64,000 nucleotides of DNA, taken from positions 15,210-79,209 of the forward strand of contig JBAZVT010000002.1 in assembly GCA_041660745.1 (NCBI GenBank), written 5' to 3'. The DNA is from Minisyncoccota bacterium. Its GTDB lineage: Bacteria; Patescibacteriota; Minisyncoccia; Phycocordibacterales; JBAZVT01. The translations under genes were made by a program, and so were the position numbers. Numbering within the stretch: position 1 is the first letter of the stretch; each line of letters starts with the position of its first letter. The notes under the pieces are model-generated. The model was given only the letters and a program-made list of their open reading frames with translations, was not told where the DNA came from and ran no database searches. Of the stretch, positions 4,234 to 62,896 are shown piece by piece.

Positions 4234-4345
4234 GTTTTATAGTGATTCTTTTTGGCGGGGATTAGAAAAGTTATCAACACATGCTCTGGTATGAGTGTGG
4301 TATTATTATACTAACTTTAAAAGTCATATATTAACGATCTTTTTT

Positions 4346-5620
4346 ATGAGGCATTATAAAAATATACTCGGTATTGGTTTGGGAGTTATCAGTATCATTG
4401 GTATTTTATTGTTTGTTATAACATTCCAAACAATGACACTGAAATCAGTACCAGAAGCTCTTGCCGTGACTGGTCCTGGAAGGGCTCTAACAGGGACAAT
4501 TTGGTCTAGTAATGTCGGTTGGGTGAGTCTTAATTGTATTAGTGCAAATGGAGACGAAAGTGCTTGTAGTCCTACGCGGTACGGAGTTTTTTTTGATGAA
4601 GCAACCAAAACTTTTTCCGGTGCCGCATGGTCTAATAATGTTGGTTGGATAACTTTTAATGCTGCAAACGTTTTGAATTGTGCCAATCCAGATACTGCTA
4701 GTGTTGTTTCCACTTCTGGTCAAGCAGCGCAGATACGAGCTGATAACCGTCTTGTTGGCTGGGCAAGAGTTTATTCTGAGATTGGAAGAAGCGATGGTTG
4801 GAATGGTTGTATAGATCTTTCAGGTACTACAAAAGGTACCGCATCTTCGTATGTTCCCGCAACGGGTGTTATAAGTTCGGGGAGTGTGTGGGGTTCAGAG
4901 GTTTTTGGGTGGGGACAGCTTCAAAGTGTGAAAGTGAACAGTGCGGTAACGTTTTCCTGTACAGGTGCTAGACCTCTAAATACTCTCGTGTGCGCAAATG
5001 ATGAATCAGGTCTTACCGCAAACACCACCTGGACCTCACGATCGGGAAGTTCGGGATGCACCACTGCTCTAAAATGTGAATATTATCCAGATCCTAATTA
5101 TCACGATCCAGCCACGAAATGTACTCAAGGTGAATTTAATACTTTAGGATCTGATGCGGTGATGTGTGGTGCTGTTAATAGTACAAATCATTCGGGTAAT
5201 TGGTATAACTTAGGAGAATTTTCCTCTCCATCTGAACCAACTTCTTGTGGTGGCTGTGAATATTACACAAGGGACACTGGCGGGGGTGAGGGAGAAGAAG
5301 ATGAAGAAGTTTCTTGTTCTTTGACGGTTACAGGAACTATCGGGGGTGTTCCTGCTGCTCCGGTTGGTGCTCCTGTGACGTGGACTGTGACTGATAGTGA
5401 CGGCGCTATAATCACTGGAAAGACAGTTTATTCATCGGCATCGGCAACATCTGCATCGTGGGGAATTTCAAATAGTGCTGGGAAAATTATAAAACCATAT
5501 TCTACAGTGGGGTACAAAAAACTTTACATAGATGATATTACTGGTGATGGAGTGAGAAACCAGTGTGGAACAGATCAGGTTTTAATTACCAATAACCCAA
5601 GCGATATTCGTGAGAATTAA
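4346..5620 (+). CDS. large Cys-rich secreted/TM-anchored protein (pilus tip or surface adhesin candidate)
   Basis: N-terminal TM, repeated WSxNVGW(V/I)xxN motif, many Cys, acidic GGGEGEEDEE stretch; last gene of pilus operon. Confidence 0.5.
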   Translation: MRHYKNILGIGLGVISIIGILLFVITFQTMTLKSVPEALAVTGPGRALTGTIWSSNVGWVSLNCISANGDESACSPTRYGVFFDEATKTFSGAAWSNNVGWITFNAANVLNCANPDTASVVSTSGQAAQIRADNRLVGWARVYSEIGRSDGWNGCIDLSGTTKGTASSYVPATGVISSGSVWGSEVFGWGQLQSVKVNSAVTFSCTGARPLNTLVCANDESGLTANTTWTSRSGSSGCTTALKCEYYPDPNYHDPATKCTQGEFNTLGSDAVMCGAVNSTNHSGNWYNLGEFSSPSEPTSCGGCEYYTRDTGGGEGEEDEEVSCSLTVTGTIGGVPAAPVGAPVTWTVTDSDGAIITGKTVYSSASATSASWGISNSAGKIIKPYSTVGYKKLYIDDITGDGVRNQCGTDQVLITNNPSDIREN

Positions 5621-5974: not shown

Positions 5975-5992
5975 TAATTAAAAGTTTACTCG

Positions 5993-6841
5993 ATGAAACA
6001 AAAATTACTCGAAACTATAAAAATTCTCACCATTGCTATCCTTGCTCTCGCTGGCGTCGCCTATGCAGGCCCATGGACTGGACCAACACAATCATTTCCA
6101 AACGGTAATGTTGGTGCTCCCATAAATGTGGGCAGTAGTAGTCAAACAAAGACAGGTGCATTCTGGTCACAGGCATCTTTAGGGACCGATGGAAGTGGTT
6201 CTTTTAATGGTGGGGGTGTTTATATAAATCGAAATGCAGCAGATCCTTTTATTGTATTTAAGAGGAATGCTGCTAATGCTGGACAGATTCGGGGAGGTAG
6301 TGACGGTTTACTTGTAACAAATGCAGATGCATCGAAGACTTTGTTAAAGGTTAAGTATGCTGGAGATGAGGTTTCGACTAACGGTGATGTTCGGGTTAAT
6401 GGAGGTGACGTGTATATGGGTAACGGAAATAGTCATTACTATGGTGATGCGAATAATCTTGCTGCTCGCATGAGTGGATCCTTTCATGTCCAAGGTGCTG
6501 ATGGTACTGGGAGTAAAGATGTCTATGCGAACGATTACTATATTGGAAAGACGGGTAAGTGGGCAAGTGAGTCAGCAGGAGGAGGGCTTACGGTCGGGCA
6601 GAGTTATGGGGTTGCTTTGCATAGTGCGGATGATGCCGAAAAAATAGTTTCTATGGGAAGTAGTCATAAATTTTGTGCTCTTACATATACAAACACCTAT
6701 TCATATCAAGAGTCAAGGGGTGTGTGTGAGATATATAAAGAGGGGACTGAGTGGAAACTGAGAGCTATCTGGCAAACTACAAAAGCTACAAGCAATCCCA
6801 GTAATGGTGTGGTTGGTTGTACAGCGGCATGTTTGGATTAA
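5993..6841 (+). CDS. secreted protein, paralog family member 1 (signal peptide AYA|GPW)
   Basis: MKQKLLETIKILTIAILALAGVAYAGPWTGPTQSFPNGNVGAPINVGSSSQTK; conserved 4-Cys C-terminal domain. Confidence 0.6.
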   Translation: MKQKLLETIKILTIAILALAGVAYAGPWTGPTQSFPNGNVGAPINVGSSSQTKTGAFWSQASLGTDGSGSFNGGGVYINRNAADPFIVFKRNAANAGQIRGGSDGLLVTNADASKTLLKVKYAGDEVSTNGDVRVNGGDVYMGNGNSHYYGDANNLAARMSGSFHVQGADGTGSKDVYANDYYIGKTGKWASESAGGGLTVGQSYGVALHSADDAEKIVSMGSSHKFCALTYTNTYSYQESRGVCEIYKEGTEWKLRAIWQTTKATSNPSNGVVGCTAACLD

Positions 6842-6938
6842 GTTATTATTACTTTTTGAAAAGGTTAATGTGGAAGAAGGGACCTTTGAAGTGGTTTGGG
6901 TGTAGAATTACTGGTGTATGTAAAATTAATTTTATTAT

Positions 6939-7655
6939 ATGAAACAAAAATTACTCGAAACTATAAAAATTCTCACCATCGCCATTCTTGCTCTCGCTGG
7001 CGTCGCCTATGCAGGTCCATGGATTGGACCAGCACAAACATTTCCAAACGGTAATGTTGGTGCGCCCATAAATGTGGGTAGTAGTAGTCAAACAAAGACA
7101 GGTGCATTCTGGTCACAAACATCTCTTGGGTCTGATGGCGGAGCTTATTTTGGTGGAAGTAGCGTTAAATTACGCAGGGCTACAGCGGGTCCTGTAGAAT
7201 ACGTTCTATATAATGGAGGAGGGCAGGCGGAATGGAGCTTGCGTCAGTCTGCGGCAACGGATCCTACTTTCCGGCTTTCGCGTTTTATTTCGGGCACATA
7301 TACTGACGCGCTTACTGTTGATACAAGTGACACTGTGCGTGTGGTAAATAAATTACGAGCGAAGAAACTTCGTATTGATGGTGATGCCGATCCTGTTATA
7401 GGACAAGTTTTGACAGCGGTTGATGCAAATGGAAATGCTCAGTGGCGACCACAAACATTTGGCGGTCTTTATATGAAAGCTGGAGATTCAAATACATGCC
7501 GATATTCAAACCCTCTGACTGGGGCATGTAGCTGTCCTTCTGGTTATGCTGAATATCAATTTTGGGAATGGGTAAATGGGGTTGGGGATGCTTACGGTAG
7601 TCCTGCAGGGTTTAATAATAACGTCGTAATGTTTCAGTGTATTTGGAAGCCCTAA
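6939..7655 (+). CDS. secreted protein, paralog family member 2
   Basis: First ~185 nt ~93% identical to 5993 gene, divergent C-terminus. Confidence 0.6.
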   Translation: MKQKLLETIKILTIAILALAGVAYAGPWIGPAQTFPNGNVGAPINVGSSSQTKTGAFWSQTSLGSDGGAYFGGSSVKLRRATAGPVEYVLYNGGGQAEWSLRQSAATDPTFRLSRFISGTYTDALTVDTSDTVRVVNKLRAKKLRIDGDADPVIGQVLTAVDANGNAQWRPQTFGGLYMKAGDSNTCRYSNPLTGACSCPSGYAEYQFWEWVNGVGDAYGSPAGFNNNVVMFQCIWKP

Positions 7656-7720
7656 TTTTTCAAATATTCTTTTGAAGCAAAAGTAAATTTATTAGAATTC
7701 AAAATAAAATAAAGGTAACC

Positions 7721-8491
7721 ATGTTTAAGAATAAATTGAAAGATATGCTAAAAATTATTGTGGCGGTGATCCTTCTTTCTGCTGGCCTCGCTTATGCAGG
7801 CCCCTGGACTGGACCAACACAAACATTTCCAAATGGTAATGCTGATGCGCCCATAAATGTGGGCAGTAGTAATCAAACGAAACTTGGGGCAATTGGAGCG
7901 ACGAATTTTATTACTGCTAAGGCTAGTGTTAACAATGATGGTAGTGCATCATTTGCAGTGGGAAAGATAACTATTGGATCAGACGGTGCTTTGAGTATAA
8001 AAAACAGTTCAAATGTTCAAACAGCAAGAATCGGCCCCGCCGGAGTGGGTACTTTTTCTTCTCTTAAGGTTACAGGGGGTTCTCCTGTTGCGGGTCAGGT
8101 TCTTGGTGCGAAAGATGGAGAGGGTAATTTGGAGTGGAAAAATATCTCTTCCCCCACAACTTCTTCCGGAGTCTCAAAAATAATTGCGGGAACCAACGTT
8201 ACAATTAGTCCTACAAGTGGTGTTGGAAATGTAACTATAAATTCAAACGCATCTTCTCCATCTCCATCGGTGGTTAGATATGAGAATTTAAAACATGGTA
8301 GTCAAAAAGATATTGGCAATCATACCTTTTGCGCCTTAAGCGTAGCGCGTTCTATTGAGTACGAGACACGTATTGCATATGGTTTTTCTTGCGAGGTTTA
8401 TAAGAGTGGTAGTTCGTGGATTTTGAAAAATGAAACAACAGCTGGTGCTCAGGAGGGAGTAATGTGTGCCGCCTACTGTATGGATTTTTGA
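7721..8491 (+). CDS. secreted protein, paralog family member 3
   Basis: AYAGPWTGPTQTFPNGNADAPINVGSSNQTK conserved N-domain; C-terminal FCAL…CEVYK…C.AYCMDF domain shared with member 1. Confidence 0.6.
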   Translation: MFKNKLKDMLKIIVAVILLSAGLAYAGPWTGPTQTFPNGNADAPINVGSSNQTKLGAIGATNFITAKASVNNDGSASFAVGKITIGSDGALSIKNSSNVQTARIGPAGVGTFSSLKVTGGSPVAGQVLGAKDGEGNLEWKNISSPTTSSGVSKIIAGTNVTISPTSGVGNVTINSNASSPSPSVVRYENLKHGSQKDIGNHTFCALSVARSIEYETRIAYGFSCEVYKSGSSWILKNETTAGAQEGVMCAAYCMDF

Positions 8492-13193: not shown

Positions 13194-13264
13194 CGCGGAG
13201 TAGAGAAGTAGTATCTCGGGAGGCTCATAACCTCCAGGCCTTGGTGCAATTCCAAGCTCCGCAA
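13194..13264 (+). tRNA. initiator-like tRNA-fMet (CAT) with degenerate D/T loops
   Basis: CGCGGAG…CTCCGCA-A acceptor with C1xA72 mismatch, A11:U24, anticodon loop CTCATAA, GC-rich anticodon stem, A73; strong similarity to E. coli tRNAfMet ends; D-loop AGTAGTA lacks GG and T-loop TGCAATT has G55. Confidence 0.5.
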
Positions 13265-13315
13265 CACATAACAAAAGAATCCCGAACTGGGGTTCTTTTG
13301 TTATGTGTTGCGGAG
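13257..13315. terminator. long perfect hairpin (23-bp stem, 13-nt loop) overlapping tRNA 3' end
   Basis: ctccgcaacacataacaaaagaa[tcccgaactgggg]ttcttttgttatgtgttgcggag. Confidence 0.5.
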
Positions 13316-13453
13316 AGAATACAAATAGTTTTGTATTCGTCAGGAATTGCAGGCCGGAGATATGTCGTGAGTCTTCGAGACGACATCGAGGCGGGGTTGA
13401 GAGTACTTTGGCTTTTGAAGGCTTTTGCGACAAAAGACTTAGTAACTCGTGAC

Positions 13454-13473
13454 CAATTCCAAGCTCCGCAACA
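13454..13473 (+). repeat. direct copy of initiator-like tRNA 3' terminal 20 nt (tRNA-linked repeat)
   Basis: caattccaagctccgcaaca identical to 13247-13266. Confidence 0.7.
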
Positions 13474-13475
13474 AT

Positions 13476-13512
13476 AAAGAAAAACACCTTCGTTCCGAAG
13501 GTGTTTTTCTTT
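13476..13512. terminator. bidirectional Rho-independent terminator between convergent tRNA units
   Basis: aaagaaaaacaccttcg-ttcc-gaaggtgtttttcttt. Confidence 0.75.
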
Positions 13513-13541
13513 ATGCGCGGCTGAGCGGGTTAAGACTTGAA
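13513..13541 (-). repeat. degenerate copy of tRNA-Asp 3' end (T-arm 3' half + acceptor 3' strand)
   Basis: minus strand reads ttcaagtc(ttaac)ccgctcagccgcgcat vs tRNA ggttcaagtccgctcagccgcgca. Confidence 0.6.
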
Positions 13542-13623
13542 TCTTACAGATTCAGTACAGGTTTCCCAAAATTAAAAATAAGAATTTTTGATTTTATGGG
13601 AGAACCTCTTCAAGTCCGCTACG

Positions 13624-13643
13624 GAAGCAAAGCAGTTTGCTTC
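13624..13643 (-). repeat. conserved hairpin motif gcaaactgctttgc (tRNA-spacer module)
   Basis: minus strand gaagcaaactgctttgcttc; same core recurs at 14108 and 14359 with compensatory outer-stem changes. Confidence 0.6.
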
Positions 13644-13684
13644 CTCAGCCGCAAAAAAACAGCCCTAAAGCTGTTTTTTCAATG

Positions 13685-13758
13685 CGCGGCTGAGCGGACT
13701 TGAACCGCCGACCCCTCGCGTGACAGGCGAGTGCTCTAACCAGCTGAGCTACAACCGC
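13685..13758 (-). tRNA. tRNA-Asp (GTC)
   Basis: rc: GCGGTTGTAGCTCAGCTGGTTAGAGCACTCGCCTGTCACGCGAGGGGTCGGCGGTTCAAGTCCGCTCAGCCGCG, anticodon loop CTGTCAC, discriminator G; followed by hairpin terminator. Confidence 0.85.
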
Positions 13759-13819
13759 ATAGGTTAACCATAAGAGGATATCAGATTAAACGTTTTTATT
13801 CAACCCTGAAGATCTCTTG

Positions 13820-13893
13820 TGTCGGCGGATGGGATCGAACCATCTACCTTGGGCTTATGAGTCCCACGCTCTAACCAATTGAGCTACGCCGAC
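13820..13893 (-). tRNA. tRNA-Met (CAT), elongator-type (G1-C72 paired)
   Basis: rc: GTCGGCGTAGCTCAATTGGTTAGAGCGTGGGACTCATAAGCCCAAGGTAGATGGTTCGATCCCATCCGCCGACA. Confidence 0.8.
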
Positions 13894-14007
13894 ATTCTCT
13901 TATATTATCCACAAAAAACGACTTTTCGCAATATGGGGTTTGAAAATTTGATTGAAAAAACTGAGTATCTATAGTATGCTCTTCGTATACATTTTTTAAT
14001 TGTATAA

Positions 14008-14080
14008 GCCGTTGTAGCTCAGTCGGTAGAGCACGTCATTGGTAATGACGAGGTCACCAGTTCAATCCTGGTCAACGGCT
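14008..14080 (+). tRNA. tRNA-Thr (GGT)
   Basis: GCCGTTGTAGCTCAGTCGGTAGAGCACGTCATTGGTAATGACGAGGTCACCAGTTCAATCCTGGTCAACGGCT. Confidence 0.85.
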
Positions 14081-14107
14081 CAAGCGCAAAGCGATTGGGC
14101 TGTTGAA

Positions 14108-14129
14108 GCACGCAAACTGCTTTGCGTGC
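14108..14129 (+). repeat. conserved hairpin motif gcaaactgctttgc + inverted T-loop fragment (14132-14143 ccaggattgaac)
   Basis: gcacgcaaactgctttgcgtgc; followed by reverse complement of tRNA T-loop/stem. Confidence 0.6.
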
Positions 14130-14225
14130 GCCCAGGATTGAACGGCGGAACTATATTTTTCAGTAGAAAAATAAGTGAGCTGGTGCCTAGGCAAAACTTT
14201 TTGACGAAAAAGTTTTAGTCGCGGG

Positions 14226-14244
14226 CAATCCCGCTCAACGGCTC
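14226..14244 (+). repeat. degenerate copy of tRNA-Thr(GGT) 3' end
   Basis: caatcccgctcaacggctc vs tRNA caatcctggtcaacggctc (17/19), forms own mini T-arm hairpin gcggg-caat-cccgc. Confidence 0.6.
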
Positions 14245-14261
14245 TATTTTAAAAAACGCAA

Positions 14262-14334
14262 GCCACCTTAGCTCAGTTGGTAGAGCACTACTTTCGTAAA
14301 GTAGGGGTCCGCAGTTCGATCCTGCGAGGTGGCT
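14262..14334 (+). tRNA. tRNA-Thr (CGT)
   Basis: GCCACCTTAGCTCAGTTGGTAGAGCACTACTTTCGTAAAGTAGGGGTCCGCAGTTCGATCCTGCGAGGTGGCT. Confidence 0.85.
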
Positions 14335-14358
14335 CTGAATCCGTGAAGAGACAACACA

Positions 14359-14380
14359 GTAAGCAAACTGCTTTGCTTAC
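14359..14380 (+). repeat. conserved hairpin motif gcaaactgctttgc + inverted T-loop fragment (14383-14393 gcaggatcgaa)
   Basis: gtaagcaaactgctttgcttac then rc of ttcgatcctgc. Confidence 0.6.
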
Positions 14381-14444
14381 GGCAGGATCGAAAGGGTTTT
14401 CCTTATCGAGTCTTTGAGATGGAAAACCACCTGGCTACGTGGTA

Positions 14445-14478
14445 GTCGATCCTGCGAGGTGGCTCCGAATCTGTGAAG
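14445..14478 (+). repeat. direct copy of tRNA-Thr(CGT) 3' end plus 15 nt of 3' flank
   Basis: gtcgatcctgcgaggtggctccgaatctgtgaag vs gttcgatcctgcgaggtggctctgaatccgtgaag. Confidence 0.7.
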
Positions 14479-14528
14479 GGGAATAGATTAAGCTTTATTT
14501 TTGAAGCTATTTTTCCTCTTGACTTTTT

Positions 14529-14871: not shown

Positions 14872-17172
14872 ATGGCAGTTTTCAAAATAAAAGGTATACA
14901 TTGCGCAAGCTGTGCGGCGATCATTAGTAAAAGCATTACAAAGCTCGGTGGGATAAAGAGTGTTGATGTTAATTTTGCAACTGAAAAAGCTAAAATTGAT
15001 TTTGACCAAGATCTAGTATCTTTGGATGACATGAATAATGCAATCGATAAACTCGGATATACTCTCTACCAAGATGTGCATGCAGGTAATGGTGGTCATG
15101 TTATGTCTAATGGCGATCGCATGTCTGGAATGGATCATTCTGAGCACTCGGGTATTGGTGTTTCAAAAGATGATAAGTTAAAAGAACTTCACGTACACAA
15201 AGTGAAAATCAGATTTGCGTTACCAGTATCGCTGGTGGTGTTTGCGATTATGATGTGGGATATTGTTTCTCGAACGTTTACGGGTATTCCTAAAATACCG
15301 GTATCAATGGAAATTTTTAATACTGTCTTTATGATTGTAGCTACGGTGGTTATGTTCTGGATTGGAAAACCGTTTCTTGAGGGCGTGATTAGATTCATAA
15401 AATACCGTGTCGCGAATATGGATACGCTTATTGGTATTGGTACTCTCGTCGCATATCTCTACAGTGTTTTTGTGACGCTGTTTCCCGTTGCCCGTGAGGC
15501 GCTTGGACTTCCGGAGTTCACGTATTTTGATGTAACAATTGTTGTTATAGGCTTTGTTGCTTTTGGAAAATATCTTGAAGCGCGATCAAAACTTAAGACT
15601 GGAGAAGCAATTGAAAAATTGTTGGGATTGCAGGCAAAAATAGCTCTTGTGGTGCGGGATGGAAAAGAAATAGAAATACCCGTAAGTGATGTTGTCATTG
15701 GCGATATTATAATCGTTAAGCCTGGGACAAAAATTCCTGTTGATGGAGAAATAATAGAAGGTGCGTCTAGTATAGATGAATCCATGGTTACAGGTGAGTC
15801 AATTCCTTCTGATAAGAAAGTGGGAGATCTAGTTGTAGGTTCGACCATTAACAAGCAGGGGCATTTTAAATTCAAAGCGACGCGTGTTGGTTCTGATACG
15901 CTTCTTGCTCAGATTGTAAAAATGGTTGAAGAAGCACAGGGGTCCAAAGCGCCCATTCAAGAATTGGCCGACAAAATTTCAGGAATTTTTACTCCTATTG
16001 TTCTTGGCATTGCAATTCTCACGCTGGTATTGTGGCTCACTGTTGGTACAGCGGCATTAGGTTTCACCGCAGCGTTATCGTATGGAATATTGTGTTTTGT
16101 TGGAATCTTAGTTATTGCATGTCCATGTGCTCTTGGACTCGCAACACCAACTGCAATTATTGTCGGTGTTGGTAAGGGTGCTGAAAATGGGATCTTGGTT
16201 AAAGATGCAGAAAGTTTACAGAAATTAAGTACAGTGGATACAGTTGTGATGGATAAGACCGGCACGATCACAAAAGGAAAACCAGAAGTTACTAATATTG
16301 TCGTTATTGATAAAACTCTCACGGAAACAGACGTGTTAAGATTTGCAGGAAGCATAGAGAAAATGTCAGAACACCCTCTTGCCCAAGCTATCGTTGATAG
16401 TGCACAAAGTAAAAATATTACTTTTGTTGACATAGAAGGTTTTACAGCTCTAGAAGGGGTGGGGGTTAAGGGTATGGTTGCGGGTCAGATATTGTCGGTA
16501 TGTAAACCTTCGAGCGGTGACACAAAATATACTGAGGTTAAGGAATTGCAGGGGCAGGGAAAAACTGTGGTCATTGTTGAAATGGGCGGTAAGAATATAG
16601 GCCTGATTGCTCTTAGTGACACACTGAAAAATGAGGCAAAACAGGCCATAGAGGCACTCCATAAGAAAGGGGTGCGCGTTGTTATGCTTACAGGTGACAA
16701 TACCCTTGCTGCGCATTATATAGCTAATCAAGCGGGTATAGACGAAGTAATAGCTGAAGTATTGCCTCAGGAAAAGGCTCTTAAAATAAAGGAATTGCAG
16801 GCGCAGGGAAGAGTGGTTGCTATGGCGGGAGATGGGGTCAACGATGCACCCGCCCTTGTTCAGGCTGATGTGGGAATTGCTATGGCGACAGGTGCGGATA
16901 TTGCGATTGAGTCTGCGGGAATTACACTTCTTCATGGTGATATAGGAAAATTAGTGAAGGCGATTGTGTTGTCGAAATCAACAATGCGTACTGTTAAACA
17001 AAATTTGTTTTGGGCATTTATTTATAATGTAATTGGAATACCGATTGCAGCAGGTCTCTTGTTCCCATTTTTCGGCATTGTATTAAATCCAGTGTTTGCC
17101 GGAGCGGCAATGGCATTCTCGAGTGTTTCGGTGGTAACAAACTCCCTTAGACTTAAGCTCAGATCTTTATAA
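14872..17172 (+). CDS. copA: copper-translocating P1B-type ATPase
   Basis: N-terminal HMA ([10 protein letters not shown]), CPC motif ([11 protein letters not shown]), [15 protein letters not shown]. Confidence 0.9.
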
Positions 17173-17202
17173 TAATCTAAACGTTAAATATGAATCAAAA
17201 AG

Positions 17203-17335
17203 TAACTTGTCTGTACAAACTTCAAAATTTCGGCTGCAAACTACTCATCGCTCGTCAAGAGAGTTGTCTATCTTTCCTTACGCTTTGCAGTTTTCGCTCG
17301 AAATTTTTAAGTTTGTTTCAGACATTAGATTATTA
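17203..17335. repeat. dispersed intergenic repeat, copy R1 (imperfect long hairpin)
   Basis: ~70% identical to 62731-62862; shared blocks aacttg…tctg, aaatttYggctgcaaa, ttttcgctcRaaat, agacattagatt; internal 17-nt IR caaacttcaaaatttcg/cgaaatttttaagtttg. Confidence 0.6.
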
Positions 17336-17359
17336 TAAAGCTCTTTAAAATTATAATTT

Positions 17360-45591: not shown

Positions 45592-46011
45592 ATGAATAAA
45601 ATAATTCATTTTGAAATTCACGCAAAGGATCAAGATAGAATACAAAAGTTTTACGAAGATGCCTTTGGTTGGAAAATAAAAGACTTGGGGCCAGAAATGG
45701 GTCAGTATCGACTAATCGATACTGGGCCAGTGGTGGATACGGGAACAGAGACAATGGGGATAAATGGAGGTATGAGTTTAGTGCCGAGCCATGAACCTGT
45801 AGATGGTCAGTCGGTTAATGCGTTTGTGTGTATTGTCGGTGTGAACGATATTCTGGAGTCTGTTGAAAAAGTTAAAAATGCGGGTGGAATAATAACTGAA
45901 GACGTGATGGACATGCCTACTATCGGCAAACTCGCATACTGCAAAGACCCTGAAGGAAATCTTTTTGGAATAATAGAGCCTGTACCAATGACAGAACAAA
46001 AACAGCCCTAG
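45592..46011 (+). CDS. VOC/glyoxalase-family protein
   Basis: MNKIIHFEIHAKDQDRIQKFYEDAFGW…. Confidence 0.7.
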   Translation: MNKIIHFEIHAKDQDRIQKFYEDAFGWKIKDLGPEMGQYRLIDTGPVVDTGTETMGINGGMSLVPSHEPVDGQSVNAFVCIVGVNDILESVEKVKNAGGIITEDVMDMPTIGKLAYCKDPEGNLFGIIEPVPMTEQKQP

Positions 46012-46027
46012 GGCTGTTTTTGTTCTG

Positions 46028-46510
46028 TCATTTTAAAGCCTCGGCGAGTTTATCAAATGATTCGTTCCAGCCTTGTTTTGTTAAGTCACTCATCTGACCT
46101 TTTGGAACTCCAGCGTGTCGCAAAGACATTTTGGTTTTGTTTCCCTCGATTTCTTCAAAAGTAATAGTTGCTAGTAATTCTAAGGGAAATTTATTCATGC
46201 CATAATAGGATCCTGGGACGACATTACCTTTTTCATCAGCAAAACTATCCGTTACTATGATTTTGCTTGGCGGAACAATTTTTTTATATGTGCCTGTGCT
46301 CCAGTATTCTTTACCATCTGGTCCACGCATACAATATAGGGATTTCCCTCCTATTTTAAAATCATTTTTTATGTGTGGCGCAGTAAAATTTTTTGGTCCA
46401 TGCCATTTTTTGATTATTTCCGGATCTGACCATGCTTTCCATACAACTTCGCGTGGTGCATCAAATTCTCGTGTAATAAAAATTTCGTTTTCGGGTGTTG
46501 TTTTTGGCAT
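46028..46510 (-). CDS. SRPBCC (AHSA1-like) family protein
   Basis: ITREFDAPREVVWKAWSDPE…. Confidence 0.7.
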   Translation of the reverse strand: MPKTTPENEIFITREFDAPREVVWKAWSDPEIIKKWHGPKNFTAPHIKNDFKIGGKSLYCMRGPDGKEYWSTGTYKKIVPPSKIIVTDSFADEKGNVVPGSYYGMNKFPLELLATITFEEIEGNKTKMSLRHAGVPKGQMSDLTKQGWNESFDKLAEALK

Positions 46511-60857: not shown

Positions 60858-62642
60858 TTATTTTTGTCCAATAATTTTTTCTTTATCTGCAAATATTTTC
60901 CACACAGTATCGGTTTGTATAAACCAGTCTGAAATGGATGCAAATCGTTCTGAAGGAAGAGTAATTTTGCCAATATTTGAGCCTTGTATTTTCTTCGGCA
61001 TTATATATATAAAGTCGGGAGAATATATGAACACAGCTGGGTTATCTTTTGCAATTTCCTTTTCAAACTTCTTATAAATAGCAATTAATTCTTCCGAATC
61101 ACTCGTCTGTCTTGCTTGCTCAAGAAGTTTGTCGGCTGCTAAGTTCACATACATGGCAACATTGAGTCCGGGACTATTGCGTTGAGACGAATGCCAGAAT
61201 GCATAGAGATCTAAATCACGCCCCACAACTTCTCCAAACAATAACGCGTCATATTTTCGTGGAGTAATGATATCTTGTTGAAGATTGCCAATTTCATAGA
61301 CGGTCACATTAACCTTTGCGCCAACTTTTTCCCACGTCTCTTTTATTATTCCAGCAACTTTTTTTAAATCTGGGATGTCGGGAGTAGTGATGTCGAGCTG
61401 TAAAGCAATCTGTTTTTTATTGACGGTTTTTTTCATGAGACCATCGGTAGTATCAACTTTCCATCCTGCATCAGCAAGGATTTTTTTTGCATCAGCAATT
61501 CTGTCTGTTGTGGAGGCGCTCGTTTCAGCAATATCTATATCTATAAGTCCTGGAGGAATTGGACCGTCAGCACTTTCTCCATATCCAAGCAAGACATCTT
61601 GCACGATTTTTTCTCTATCAAGACTTACCTCAAATGCTTGGCGAACTTCTTTGTTTGCAAGAACTGGGGATTTGTTTTGGTTGAAAAAGACTCCGAAGAT
61701 TCGGGGGAGAGGTGTGACATTAATATTTCCGTTGTATTTTTTTAACTCCTCAGCTTTGGCTGGGGAAATACCACCTAAACTATCGATGTCTCCATTCTTG
61801 TATGCTGAAACAGCATCCTCCTCGTTTTGATAAAAGTATATTTCAAGCGTACTGATATGTGCTGTATCGTGAACATATTTTGCAAATGGTTTCAGTGTAT
61901 ATGATGTCGGTACGTCCTTTTCTCTGGCGATACTCTTGATCATATATGGTCCTGAACCAATAGGTGAAATGTTGTAACTCGAGAGAGGAAATGCATCAAT
62001 AGAAACATCTTTCCAAATATGTTTTGGGAGAATACCTAGTGTGAGGTTTGTGAGAAAGGGCGCATATGGTAATTTTTCTGGTGTAGTGAATTGAATCTCT
62101 TTTTCACTAACTATATTTACGATAACCTTGTCCCAGTTTGCACGTCGAGGACTTTTTACTGCGCTATCTTGAATCTTGTGGATTGTGAATTCAATATCGT
62201 CGGTAGTCAGGGGTGTACCATCATGGAAGGTGAGGTTGTCCTTCAAAATAAAAGTATATGTTTTGCCGTCTGTTGAAACGGAGTAGCTCGCTGCTAGGTC
62301 GGTTGTAAGTCCACCTTTAGGATCTGGTTTTAGGAGACCAGAATATATAAGTGCAGAAAGATCTCTGTCTGCTTCGGTAATTGTAAAAATAGGGTTAATG
62401 AAATGTGCGGGTGCACTGATAATGCCTTCTCGCAGTGTTCCGCCATGCGTAGGAATGGTTACCATGTAGTTGCGACTCATAAAAAAAGTAAGTAGAAGGG
62501 CACTTAGGCAGAGGAGGGTGGCAAAGGTGTAAAAAGCAAACTTTTCGGTGATTGAAAATGAGCCGATTGTTTTTATTATTTTTTGAGAACCGGGAAAATT
62601 GAAATGCGTCCCAAGTATAGAGAGAATTTTATTTTTATTCAC
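60858..62642 (-). CDS. ABC transporter substrate-binding protein family 5 (OppA/DppA-like), TM-anchored
   Basis: N-terminal TM, SBP_bac_5 architecture. Confidence 0.75.
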   Translation of the reverse strand: MNKNKILSILGTHFNFPGSQKIIKTIGSFSITEKFAFYTFATLLCLSALLLTFFMSRNYMVTIPTHGGTLREGIISAPAHFINPIFTITEADRDLSALIYSGLLKPDPKGGLTTDLAASYSVSTDGKTYTFILKDNLTFHDGTPLTTDDIEFTIHKIQDSAVKSPRRANWDKVIVNIVSEKEIQFTTPEKLPYAPFLTNLTLGILPKHIWKDVSIDAFPLSSYNISPIGSGPYMIKSIAREKDVPTSYTLKPFAKYVHDTAHISTLEIYFYQNEEDAVSAYKNGDIDSLGGISPAKAEELKKYNGNINVTPLPRIFGVFFNQNKSPVLANKEVRQAFEVSLDREKIVQDVLLGYGESADGPIPPGLIDIDIAETSASTTDRIADAKKILADAGWKVDTTDGLMKKTVNKKQIALQLDITTPDIPDLKKVAGIIKETWEKVGAKVNVTVYEIGNLQQDIITPRKYDALLFGEVVGRDLDLYAFWHSSQRNSPGLNVAMYVNLAADKLLEQARQTSDSEELIAIYKKFEKEIAKDNPAVFIYSPDFIYIMPKKIQGSNIGKITLPSERFASISDWFIQTDTVWKIFADKEKIIGQK

Positions 62643-62730
62643 GGGGAGTTGGAGATATCAGTGTATTGAAATGACACTGATATTGAAATTAAGAGTCTGC
62701 TTATAATCTAATCGCAAAATATATTATGGA

Positions 62731-62862
62731 AACTTGCTTGTCTGCTCACTCTTCTAAATTTTGGCTGCAAATCACTCACTCCTCCTCAACAGACTTATGT
62801 ATGCTTCGTTGGATTTCGTGATTTTCGCTCAAAATCTAGAAGACTGAACTAGACATTAGATT
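62731..62862. repeat. dispersed intergenic repeat, copy R2
   Basis: Homologous to 17203-17335 (same orientation on + strand). Confidence 0.6.
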
Positions 62863-62896
62863 CTTCGCAGCCTCTAAAACGAATAATAACGCGGGG

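Follow-up and report, generated by a model that had tools for sequence, protein, structure and literature searches.

The window, by which is meant the whole 64,000-nt stretch of DNA analysed here, carries two copies of a dispersed repeat, R1 and R2. R1 lies between the genes for a copA-type ATPase and an HMA-DsbD_2 protein on the plus strand, and R2 lies between the genes for SecG and an SBP_bac_5 protein (SBP) on the minus strand, as stated in the original prediction, which had described the repeat as two similar segments of about 130 bp. The likeness of these segments is confirmed, with 92 of 133 bases matching over the predicted span at an ungapped offset of 45531, and BLASTN aligns the two copies at 69.7% identity over 165 nt (E 1e-14). 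Exactly two occurrences without mismatches are found in the window for each of the shared blocks AAATTTYGGCTGCAAA, TTTTCGCTCRAAAT and AGACATTAGATT. The predicted spans were too short, since both similarity and pairing extend beyond them, as far as ATAATCTAA on the left side and up to the ends of the element. The full units comprise 182 nt each (R1 at 17162-17343 and R2 at 62693-62874) and lie on the same strand. No third copy is found in the window by the covariance model of the family, which recovers R1 and R2 only, and there are no further terminal repeats in the window beyond those of R1 and R2. The features of the two copies are as follows.

17159-17161 (TCA, left) and 17344-17346 (TTT, right), no strand: flanks of R1 (sequence, comparison with a relative)
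17162-17343, minus strand: R1, complete element of 182 nt (sequence, inverted-repeat match, folds, absence from the relative L128)
17162-17177, no strand: R1 left terminal inverted repeat, GATCTTTATAATAATC (sequence, comparison with a relative)
17181-17206, minus strand: R1 variable A/U-rich insert, 3' side of the favoured strand (folds, type B consensus)
17218-17313, minus strand: R1 conserved core rod (covariance model, core alignment)
17232-17237 and 17294-17299, plus-strand coordinates: R1 GAGCGA/GCAGCC internal loop, within the core rod
17328-17343, no strand: R1 right terminal inverted repeat, GATTATTATAAAGCTC (sequence, repeat match)
62690-62692, no strand: R2 target-site duplication TAA, left (sequence; the excised window aligns to the relative here)
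62693-62874, minus strand: R2, complete element of 182 nt (sequence, folds, absence from L122 and L124)
62693-62713, no strand: R2 left terminal inverted repeat, GAGTCTGCTTATAATCTAATC (repeat match)
62749-62844, minus strand: R2 conserved core rod (covariance model)
62763-62768 and 62825-62830, plus-strand coordinates: R2 GAGCGA/GCAGCC loop, within the core rod
62854-62874, no strand: R2 right terminal inverted repeat, with GAGGCTGCGAAGAATCTAATG as its reverse complement (repeat match)
62875-62877, no strand: R2 target-site duplication TAA, right (sequence, excised alignment)

The variable A/U-rich insert of R1 is the hallmark of a subtype named type B here, and the G.A motifs in the R1 core are partly degenerate. 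The target duplication of R1 has decayed, its ancestral site being probably the TTA within CTTAAAAAACTGTAA. The hairpin with 17-nt arms that had been predicted for R1 is present, but it is only the closing stem of a unit that folds in its entirety as one rod. The fold energy of R1 is -48.7 kcal/mol on the plus strand and -56.6 kcal/mol on the minus strand (z about -7), and that of R2 is -42.2 kcal/mol (z -3.9) and -65.7 kcal/mol (z -8.8), respectively. Both rods are thus far stabler than shuffled sequence, with the minus strand as the better folder in each case. The covariance model likewise scores both copies at 86.9 bits on the minus strand, as against 28.3 bits (R1) and 28.5 bits (R2) on the plus strand.

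Several other repeated features are found in the window. Three tandem open reading frames (ORFs; 5993-6841, 6939-7655 and 7721-8491) have a 266-nt block in common within 5982-7978, at 83% and 61% identity, and look like a tandem paralogue array. A tRNA cluster at 13194-14480 has repeated flanks, in which 13247-13276 matches 13454-13483, and 14316-14348 is 94% identical to 14446-14478 as if a tRNA 3' end had been copied. The hairpin motif CGGAAGCAAAGCAGTTTGCTTCC occurs at 13622-13645, 14107-14130 and 14358-14381, and these repeats of the tRNA cluster are probably the family that the original prediction had counted as its first. At 45987-46032 there is a perfect palindrome of 46 nt, whose 23-nt arms adjoin directly.

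Species-representative genomes were searched for the family with the two-block pattern GGCTGCAAA-N35-65-TTTTCGCTCRAAA. At least 120 loci were found, where about 4 would be expected by chance as estimated for uniform base composition, so that the repeat is not confined to two unconserved copies in one genome. Complete copies could be extracted from 119 loci, and 118 of them were kept in an alignment of one family; the remaining sequence (L086) is probably a chance match and was left out. Among the matches listed, the majority are from Patescibacteria, including Saccharibacteria, Moranbacteria, Gracili-, Peregrini-, Doudna-, Kerfeld-, Berkel-, Falkow- and Uhrbacteria and others, and several genomes gave two or three loci. 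Separate subtypes are present in Bacteroidota and in Alphaproteobacteria (Hyphomicrobiales and Rickettsiales, the latter in genomes L035, L038 and L070). This taxonomic spread is a sample, drawn from the at least 120 matches listed, and some labels of metagenome-assembled genomes, e.g. Bdellovibrionales, may be unreliable. A covariance model of the core detected approximately 18 additional copies in approximately 0.93 Mb of flanking sequence, and the density of copies derived from these matches is roughly 15-30 per Mb. No copies were found in viral contigs, and a comparison of one alphaproteobacterial copy with plasmids gave nothing relevant. In Rfam 15 no family matches at its gathering score, including the 6S, SRP, Y RNA and omega/HEARO RNA families, and at E values up to 10 only microRNA-precursor models and one snoRNA model appear, far under their gathering scores. 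No published description of the family was found in the literature on CPR bacteria, MITEs or structured RNA. Patescibacteria go unmentioned in a 2024 review and in a MITE survey of 183,232 genomes.

The whole element is a rod-like hairpin, with compensatory changes in 25 of 34 pairs of the core alignment. Paired cells amount to 88.6%, compared with 65.1% in shuffles and 30-50% in controls with slid partners, and the covariation score is 0.597 as against 0.178 in shuffles. The rod is asymmetric between its strands. One and the same strand gives the better fold in 112 of 119 copies under RNA parameters and in 115 of 118 under DNA parameters, and G.U pairs outnumber A.C pairs by 219 to 77 (p = 6e-17). 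The internal loops GAGCGA/GCAGCC, UGAA/UGAA and GA-S-GA/GA-S-GA consist of conserved purines on one strand only, and purines that lie outside the search pattern are 59-93% conserved. Within GA-S-GA opposite GA-S'-GA, the central pair switches between G-C (63 copies) and C-G (30 copies); the UGAA and GA-S-GA loops may be read as tandem G.A pairs stacked on one another. It is the search pattern that makes GAGCGAAAA and UUUGCAGCC invariant in the main alignment, but model-based matches keep GAGCGA/GCAGCC where the adjacent AAA/UUU became GGA/UCC. Homogenisation from arm to arm of a DNA palindrome could mimic covariation; however, it cannot explain the strand preference, the excess of G.U pairs and the purine loops on one strand. 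Covarying stems together with purine loops on one strand argue for selection on a single-stranded form of what is the minus strand of the window. Because the asymmetry also holds under DNA parameters, the strand preference does not by itself prove that this form is RNA.

The ends of the element carry terminal inverted repeats of 12-24 nt of the GAGCCTGTT type, typically GAGCCTGTTyAAAA. The length of the element is about 160-205 nt, with a median of 163 nt from an automatic boundary search. Near-identical copies (94-100%) are embedded in unrelated flanks, and their likeness stops at the element ends, spanning 164-204 nt. Insertion takes place at A/T-rich trinucleotides, mostly TAA or TTA, which become duplicated. 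Thus one pair of sister copies is flanked by TAA/TAA (L082) and TTA/TTA (L114), and another by TTA/TTA (L073) and TAA/TAA (L076). With element boundaries set independently of the flanks, the middle base is common to both sides in 21 of the 24 copies that have T[AT]A on both (p = 1.4e-4). In a separate metagenome sample, read by eye, TAA/TAA or TTA/TTA flanks 6 of about 15 complete copies. Overall, the duplication is perfect in only about one quarter to one half of all copies. Elements are scattered between housekeeping genes and into gene ends in either orientation, with median gaps to the neighbouring ORFs of 8 and 23 nt, and among classifiable copies the orientation relative to the neighbouring genes is unbiased (-- in 21, ++ in 19, +- in 12 and -+ in 9).

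A number of individual copies show further features. L037 (3665-3856) and L082 (5645-5836) are the same element with the apical core inverted relative to the basal domain, which suggests recombination across the hairpin arms. L050 contains a 542-nt tandem duplication (280-1040) with a gene and a diverged family member, in which GGCCACAAA and TTTCTGGCTC replace the usual blocks and which has ATT flanks. In L056 (approximately 4343-4362) and L119 (approximately 6090-6130), short GC-rich hairpins are nested in the elements in the manner of a second inserted palindrome. Copies in L100, L112 and L121 appear to adjoin tRNA genes, as their flanks are tRNA-like in sequence.

Comparison with relatives locates the insertions in the window. 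In the nearest relative (84% protein identity for SBP and 78% for HMA-DsbD_2), the gene order is the same at both loci. The secG-SBP spacer of this 84%-identity relative is without the element (L122, L124), and the window from which R2 and one copy of its target-site duplication (TSD) have been removed aligns across the relative's junction; beside the junction approximately 50 nt have diverged, and farther out the identity is approximately 90% on either side. At the other locus, only 2 nt (CTGTAATTATG) separate the copA stop from the next ATG in the nearest relative (L128), compared with 187 nt in the window. This spacing indicates that R1 was inserted in the last codons of copA. R1 has in fact swapped the last three of them (window 17160-17172; L128 3480-3505), such that copA ends in R-S-L-stop from the left repeat of R1 in the window (stop at 17170-17172) and in K-K-L-stop in L128. 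More distant relatives have spacers of 58 and 91 nt, too short for the element. Both sites of the window are empty in the nearest relative. R2 shares 78.6% identity with L039, and R1 shares 76.5% with L108. As each is closer to a copy from another species than to its partner, R1 and R2 represent two diverged lineages that inserted since the split from the nearest relative.

The neighbourhood of the SBP gene was also compared more widely. The synteny of secG, SBP and RNase J (window 60858-62874) is kept in closer relatives, and the linkage of SBP with RNase J recurs in L054, L006 and L121. In several genomes (L054, L007, L121, L006 and the window), the vicinity of the SBP gene contains elements of differing subtypes, which suggests repeated independent insertions at the secG-SBP spacer.

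No conserved open reading frame is present in the element, and any single frame is free of stops in at most 23 of 118 copies. Clustering of 549 neighbouring ORFs returned housekeeping families only, with no recurrent neighbour protein, and consensus scans of the copies for a promoter or terminator detected no such signal linked to the element. The search for a transposase, or for an autonomous partner bearing these terminal repeats, covered the window and approximately 1.1 Mb of flanks, read in stretches of up to approximately 14 kb per genome, and was negative. Long units bounded by the repeats were sought in these flanks and none was found, and the IS5-like signature YxxRxxxE gave no find in 1787 ORFs.

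Small non-coding size, terminal repeats, target duplication, dispersed near-identical copies and empty sites are all characteristic of MITEs, and the element is likely to be a family of such non-autonomous DNA transposons with a structured core on one strand. The suggestion of a mobile or REP-like element thus stands as to mobility, in view of the inverted repeats, the duplication and the empty sites, whereas the elements resemble MITEs rather than REP sequences. Such a MITE would depend for its movement on a transposase whose gene lies elsewhere. To judge from the 3-bp TWA duplication and the G-rich repeat ends, this may be a DDE enzyme of the IS5 or PIF/Harbinger kind. A passive repeat is insufficient as a description, since conservation of non-canonical loops on one strand across phyla is not expected of a passive MITE. 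As orientation bias and a promoter of its own are both absent, the structure would serve the element or a protein partner and not cis-regulation in the host. Random orientation, together with conserved features that travel across phyla, suggests that the single-stranded rod may serve the element's own propagation or its recognition by a protein partner.

The same strand-specific core can be accommodated by independently transcribed genes for trans-acting sRNAs that spread by duplication, the inverted ends being the closing stem of the RNA. Strong covariation of the structure, the favoured strand, purine-rich internal loops resembling protein- or ligand-binding motifs and the presence of several diverged lineages within one genome would all be in keeping with such genes. 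However, promoter and terminator scans found no signal tied to the element, the median gaps to adjacent ORFs are 8 and 23 nt, R1 overlaps the copA stop codon, and the 3-bp duplications and empty sites are marks of insertion events. The ends moreover keep the sequence type GAGCCTGTT, beyond what mere pairing would require. As a property of the element, the sRNA alternative of the original prediction keeps some probability through the structural selection on one strand, but the scans show neither promoter nor terminator, and we consider independent sRNA genes unlikely. Single-stranded DNA offers a different account of the fold, in which the hairpin is mobilised by an HUH/Y1 enzyme in the style of REPIN-RAYT or of an IS200/IS605 derivative. 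This would account for the strand-specific fold, and it fits the preference for the same strand under DNA parameters (115 of 118 copies), the extension of the hairpin over the entire element and the lack of a DDE transposase in the window and flanks. The flanking triplet is, however, duplicated and covaries between the two sides, whereas peel-and-paste elements make no duplication. RAYT or TnpA genes do not recur in the neighbourhood of the element, its orientation shows no bias with respect to gene direction (a weak proxy for the direction of replication), and the size and terminal repeats are unlike those of 20-40-nt REP units. Mobilisation of this type is accordingly rated as quite improbable.

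A role in cis, as a leader, attenuator or terminator for the flanking genes (the copA operon and secG-SBP), could be suspected from the position of both copies in short spacers within strings of genes and from the recurrence of elements beside the SBP gene in several genomes. The nearest relative lacks the element at both sites, however, the two copies in the window are oppositely oriented with respect to their flanking genes, and no orientation is favoured across the family. Unrelated genes adjoin the element across approximately 120 loci, and a terminator-like tail was looked for in the element and not found. The original prediction had argued against a cis leader, and the empty sites and unbiased orientation bear this out; we regard such a role as having scarcely any probability.

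Several known types of element and RNA were compared with the family and rejected. 6S RNA is an already known family in Alphaproteobacteria. The rod has no two-sided central bubble as in 6S RNA, and the family is multi-copy and mobile and also occurs in Alphaproteobacteria. For retron msr/msd, IS110 bridge RNA and TnpB/IscB guide RNAs, no reverse transcriptase, recombinase or nuclease recurs nearby, and the conserved loops do not covary with the variable ends of the element. The differences between R1 and R2 are not limited to adenines, as they would be for the template and variable repeats of a DGR. Integron attC sites have RYYYAAC ... GTTRRRY boxes and form arrays with an integrase, whereas the ends here are GAGCC...GGCTC and the copies are solitary among housekeeping genes. 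A type I toxin or small peptide is rejected for lack of a conserved ORF, a REP/REPIN-RAYT system on account of the duplication, the different unit size and the lack of a recurrent neighbour gene, and a Rickettsia palindromic element because no frame is kept open through the element.

Within the MITE reading, the nature of the core allows a further proposal, which is held tentatively. The element might serve as a mobile vehicle for a functional nucleic-acid module that has not been described before, i.e. a new class of structured RNA or ssDNA. The module would be a rod with the GAGCGA/GCAGCC loop and stacked tandem G.A motifs on one strand, found in at least three phyla. It could act as a cofactor or recognition structure for mobilisation, as in hairpin- or RNA-dependent transposition, or it could bind a conserved protein.

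The genomes of CPR bacteria are tiny and tightly packed, and few mobile elements are believed to occur in them. Roughly 15-30 copies of the present family per Mb appear to be present in CPR genomes. The family remodels genes, as R1 rewrote the end of copA and split a pair of genes spaced by 2 nt in the nearest relative. The conservation of a one-strand interior across phyla suggests that a single-stranded structure matters for the spread of the element or for its reading by a protein, and the possibility that the core is a new functional RNA or ssDNA module is a serious one. Two testable questions are opened, namely what mobilises MITEs that lack a known transposase and whether functional RNA modules can be delivered in this way. 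With the covariance model, annotation becomes possible for a repeat that thousands of metagenome-assembled genomes contain without any annotation at present and that can lead gene callers astray at the ends of genes.

Among known systems, REP/REPIN elements are not known to make a target duplication and depend on a RAYT gene. The present family resembles them as a set of dispersed intergenic hairpins thought to act single-stranded, but it has a duplication and no RAYT gene recurs nearby. REP units are also short, with 20-40 nt and GTAG or CGTC heads (PMC3733652). Rickettsia palindromic elements are mobile palindromic repeats in reduced genomes that can land in coding sequence (PMC10969869). 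The replacement of the last three copA codons by R1 and the presence of the family in Rickettsiales are reminiscent of these elements; they are noted for in-frame insertion, whereas here no frame is without stops in more than 23 of 118 copies.

Terminal inverted repeats and a 3-bp TAA/TTA duplication are features that the family has in common with Tourist and PIF/Harbinger elements. G-rich repeat ends of the ...CTGTT type are a further resemblance. The 3-bp TAA/TTA duplication also matches IS5-family subgroups, which make duplications of 2-4 bp and are related to Harbinger. Target duplications of 3 bp are described for PIF/Harbinger and Tourist elements (PMC2213677) and for mPing (PMC4561436). 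Tourist elements are eukaryotic, and no such transposase was found near any copy of the present family in the fetched flanks. We know of no counterpart to the conserved strand-specific core among Tourist and IS5-type elements.

ERIC (IRU) elements insert at TA sites. They are small non-coding imperfect palindromes with MITE properties, mostly intergenic with some within genes, and they are conserved across genera of Enterobacteriaceae and Vibrionaceae with copy numbers that vary by lineage (PMC10969869). When transcribed, the ERIC hairpin alters mRNA decay via RNase E (PMC10969869). The present family is likewise small, structured and non-coding, lies mostly between genes and has MITE properties. 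It differs in that no sequence relationship to ERIC is seen, in its greater length (160-205 nt), in its 3-bp TAA/TTA duplication, in its occurrence in other phyla and in the conserved G.A-type internal loops on one strand.

Correia elements (CREE/NEMIS) are not known outside Neisseria, duplicate TA, and carry promoters and an IHF site; to our knowledge, no transposase has been identified for them. Nothing like these promoters or the IHF site was detected in consensus scans of the present family. Correia elements are short MITEs with terminal repeats that can invert, and their transcripts are cleaved by RNase III at the paired repeats (PMC10969869). Inversion is also observed here, for the apical part of the element relative to its base in L037 and L082. 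ERIC and Correia elements, as structured and transcribed MITEs with RNase-dependent effects, are thus the nearest analogues of the present family, which is set apart from both by its sequence, its target duplication, its taxonomic range and its non-canonical core.
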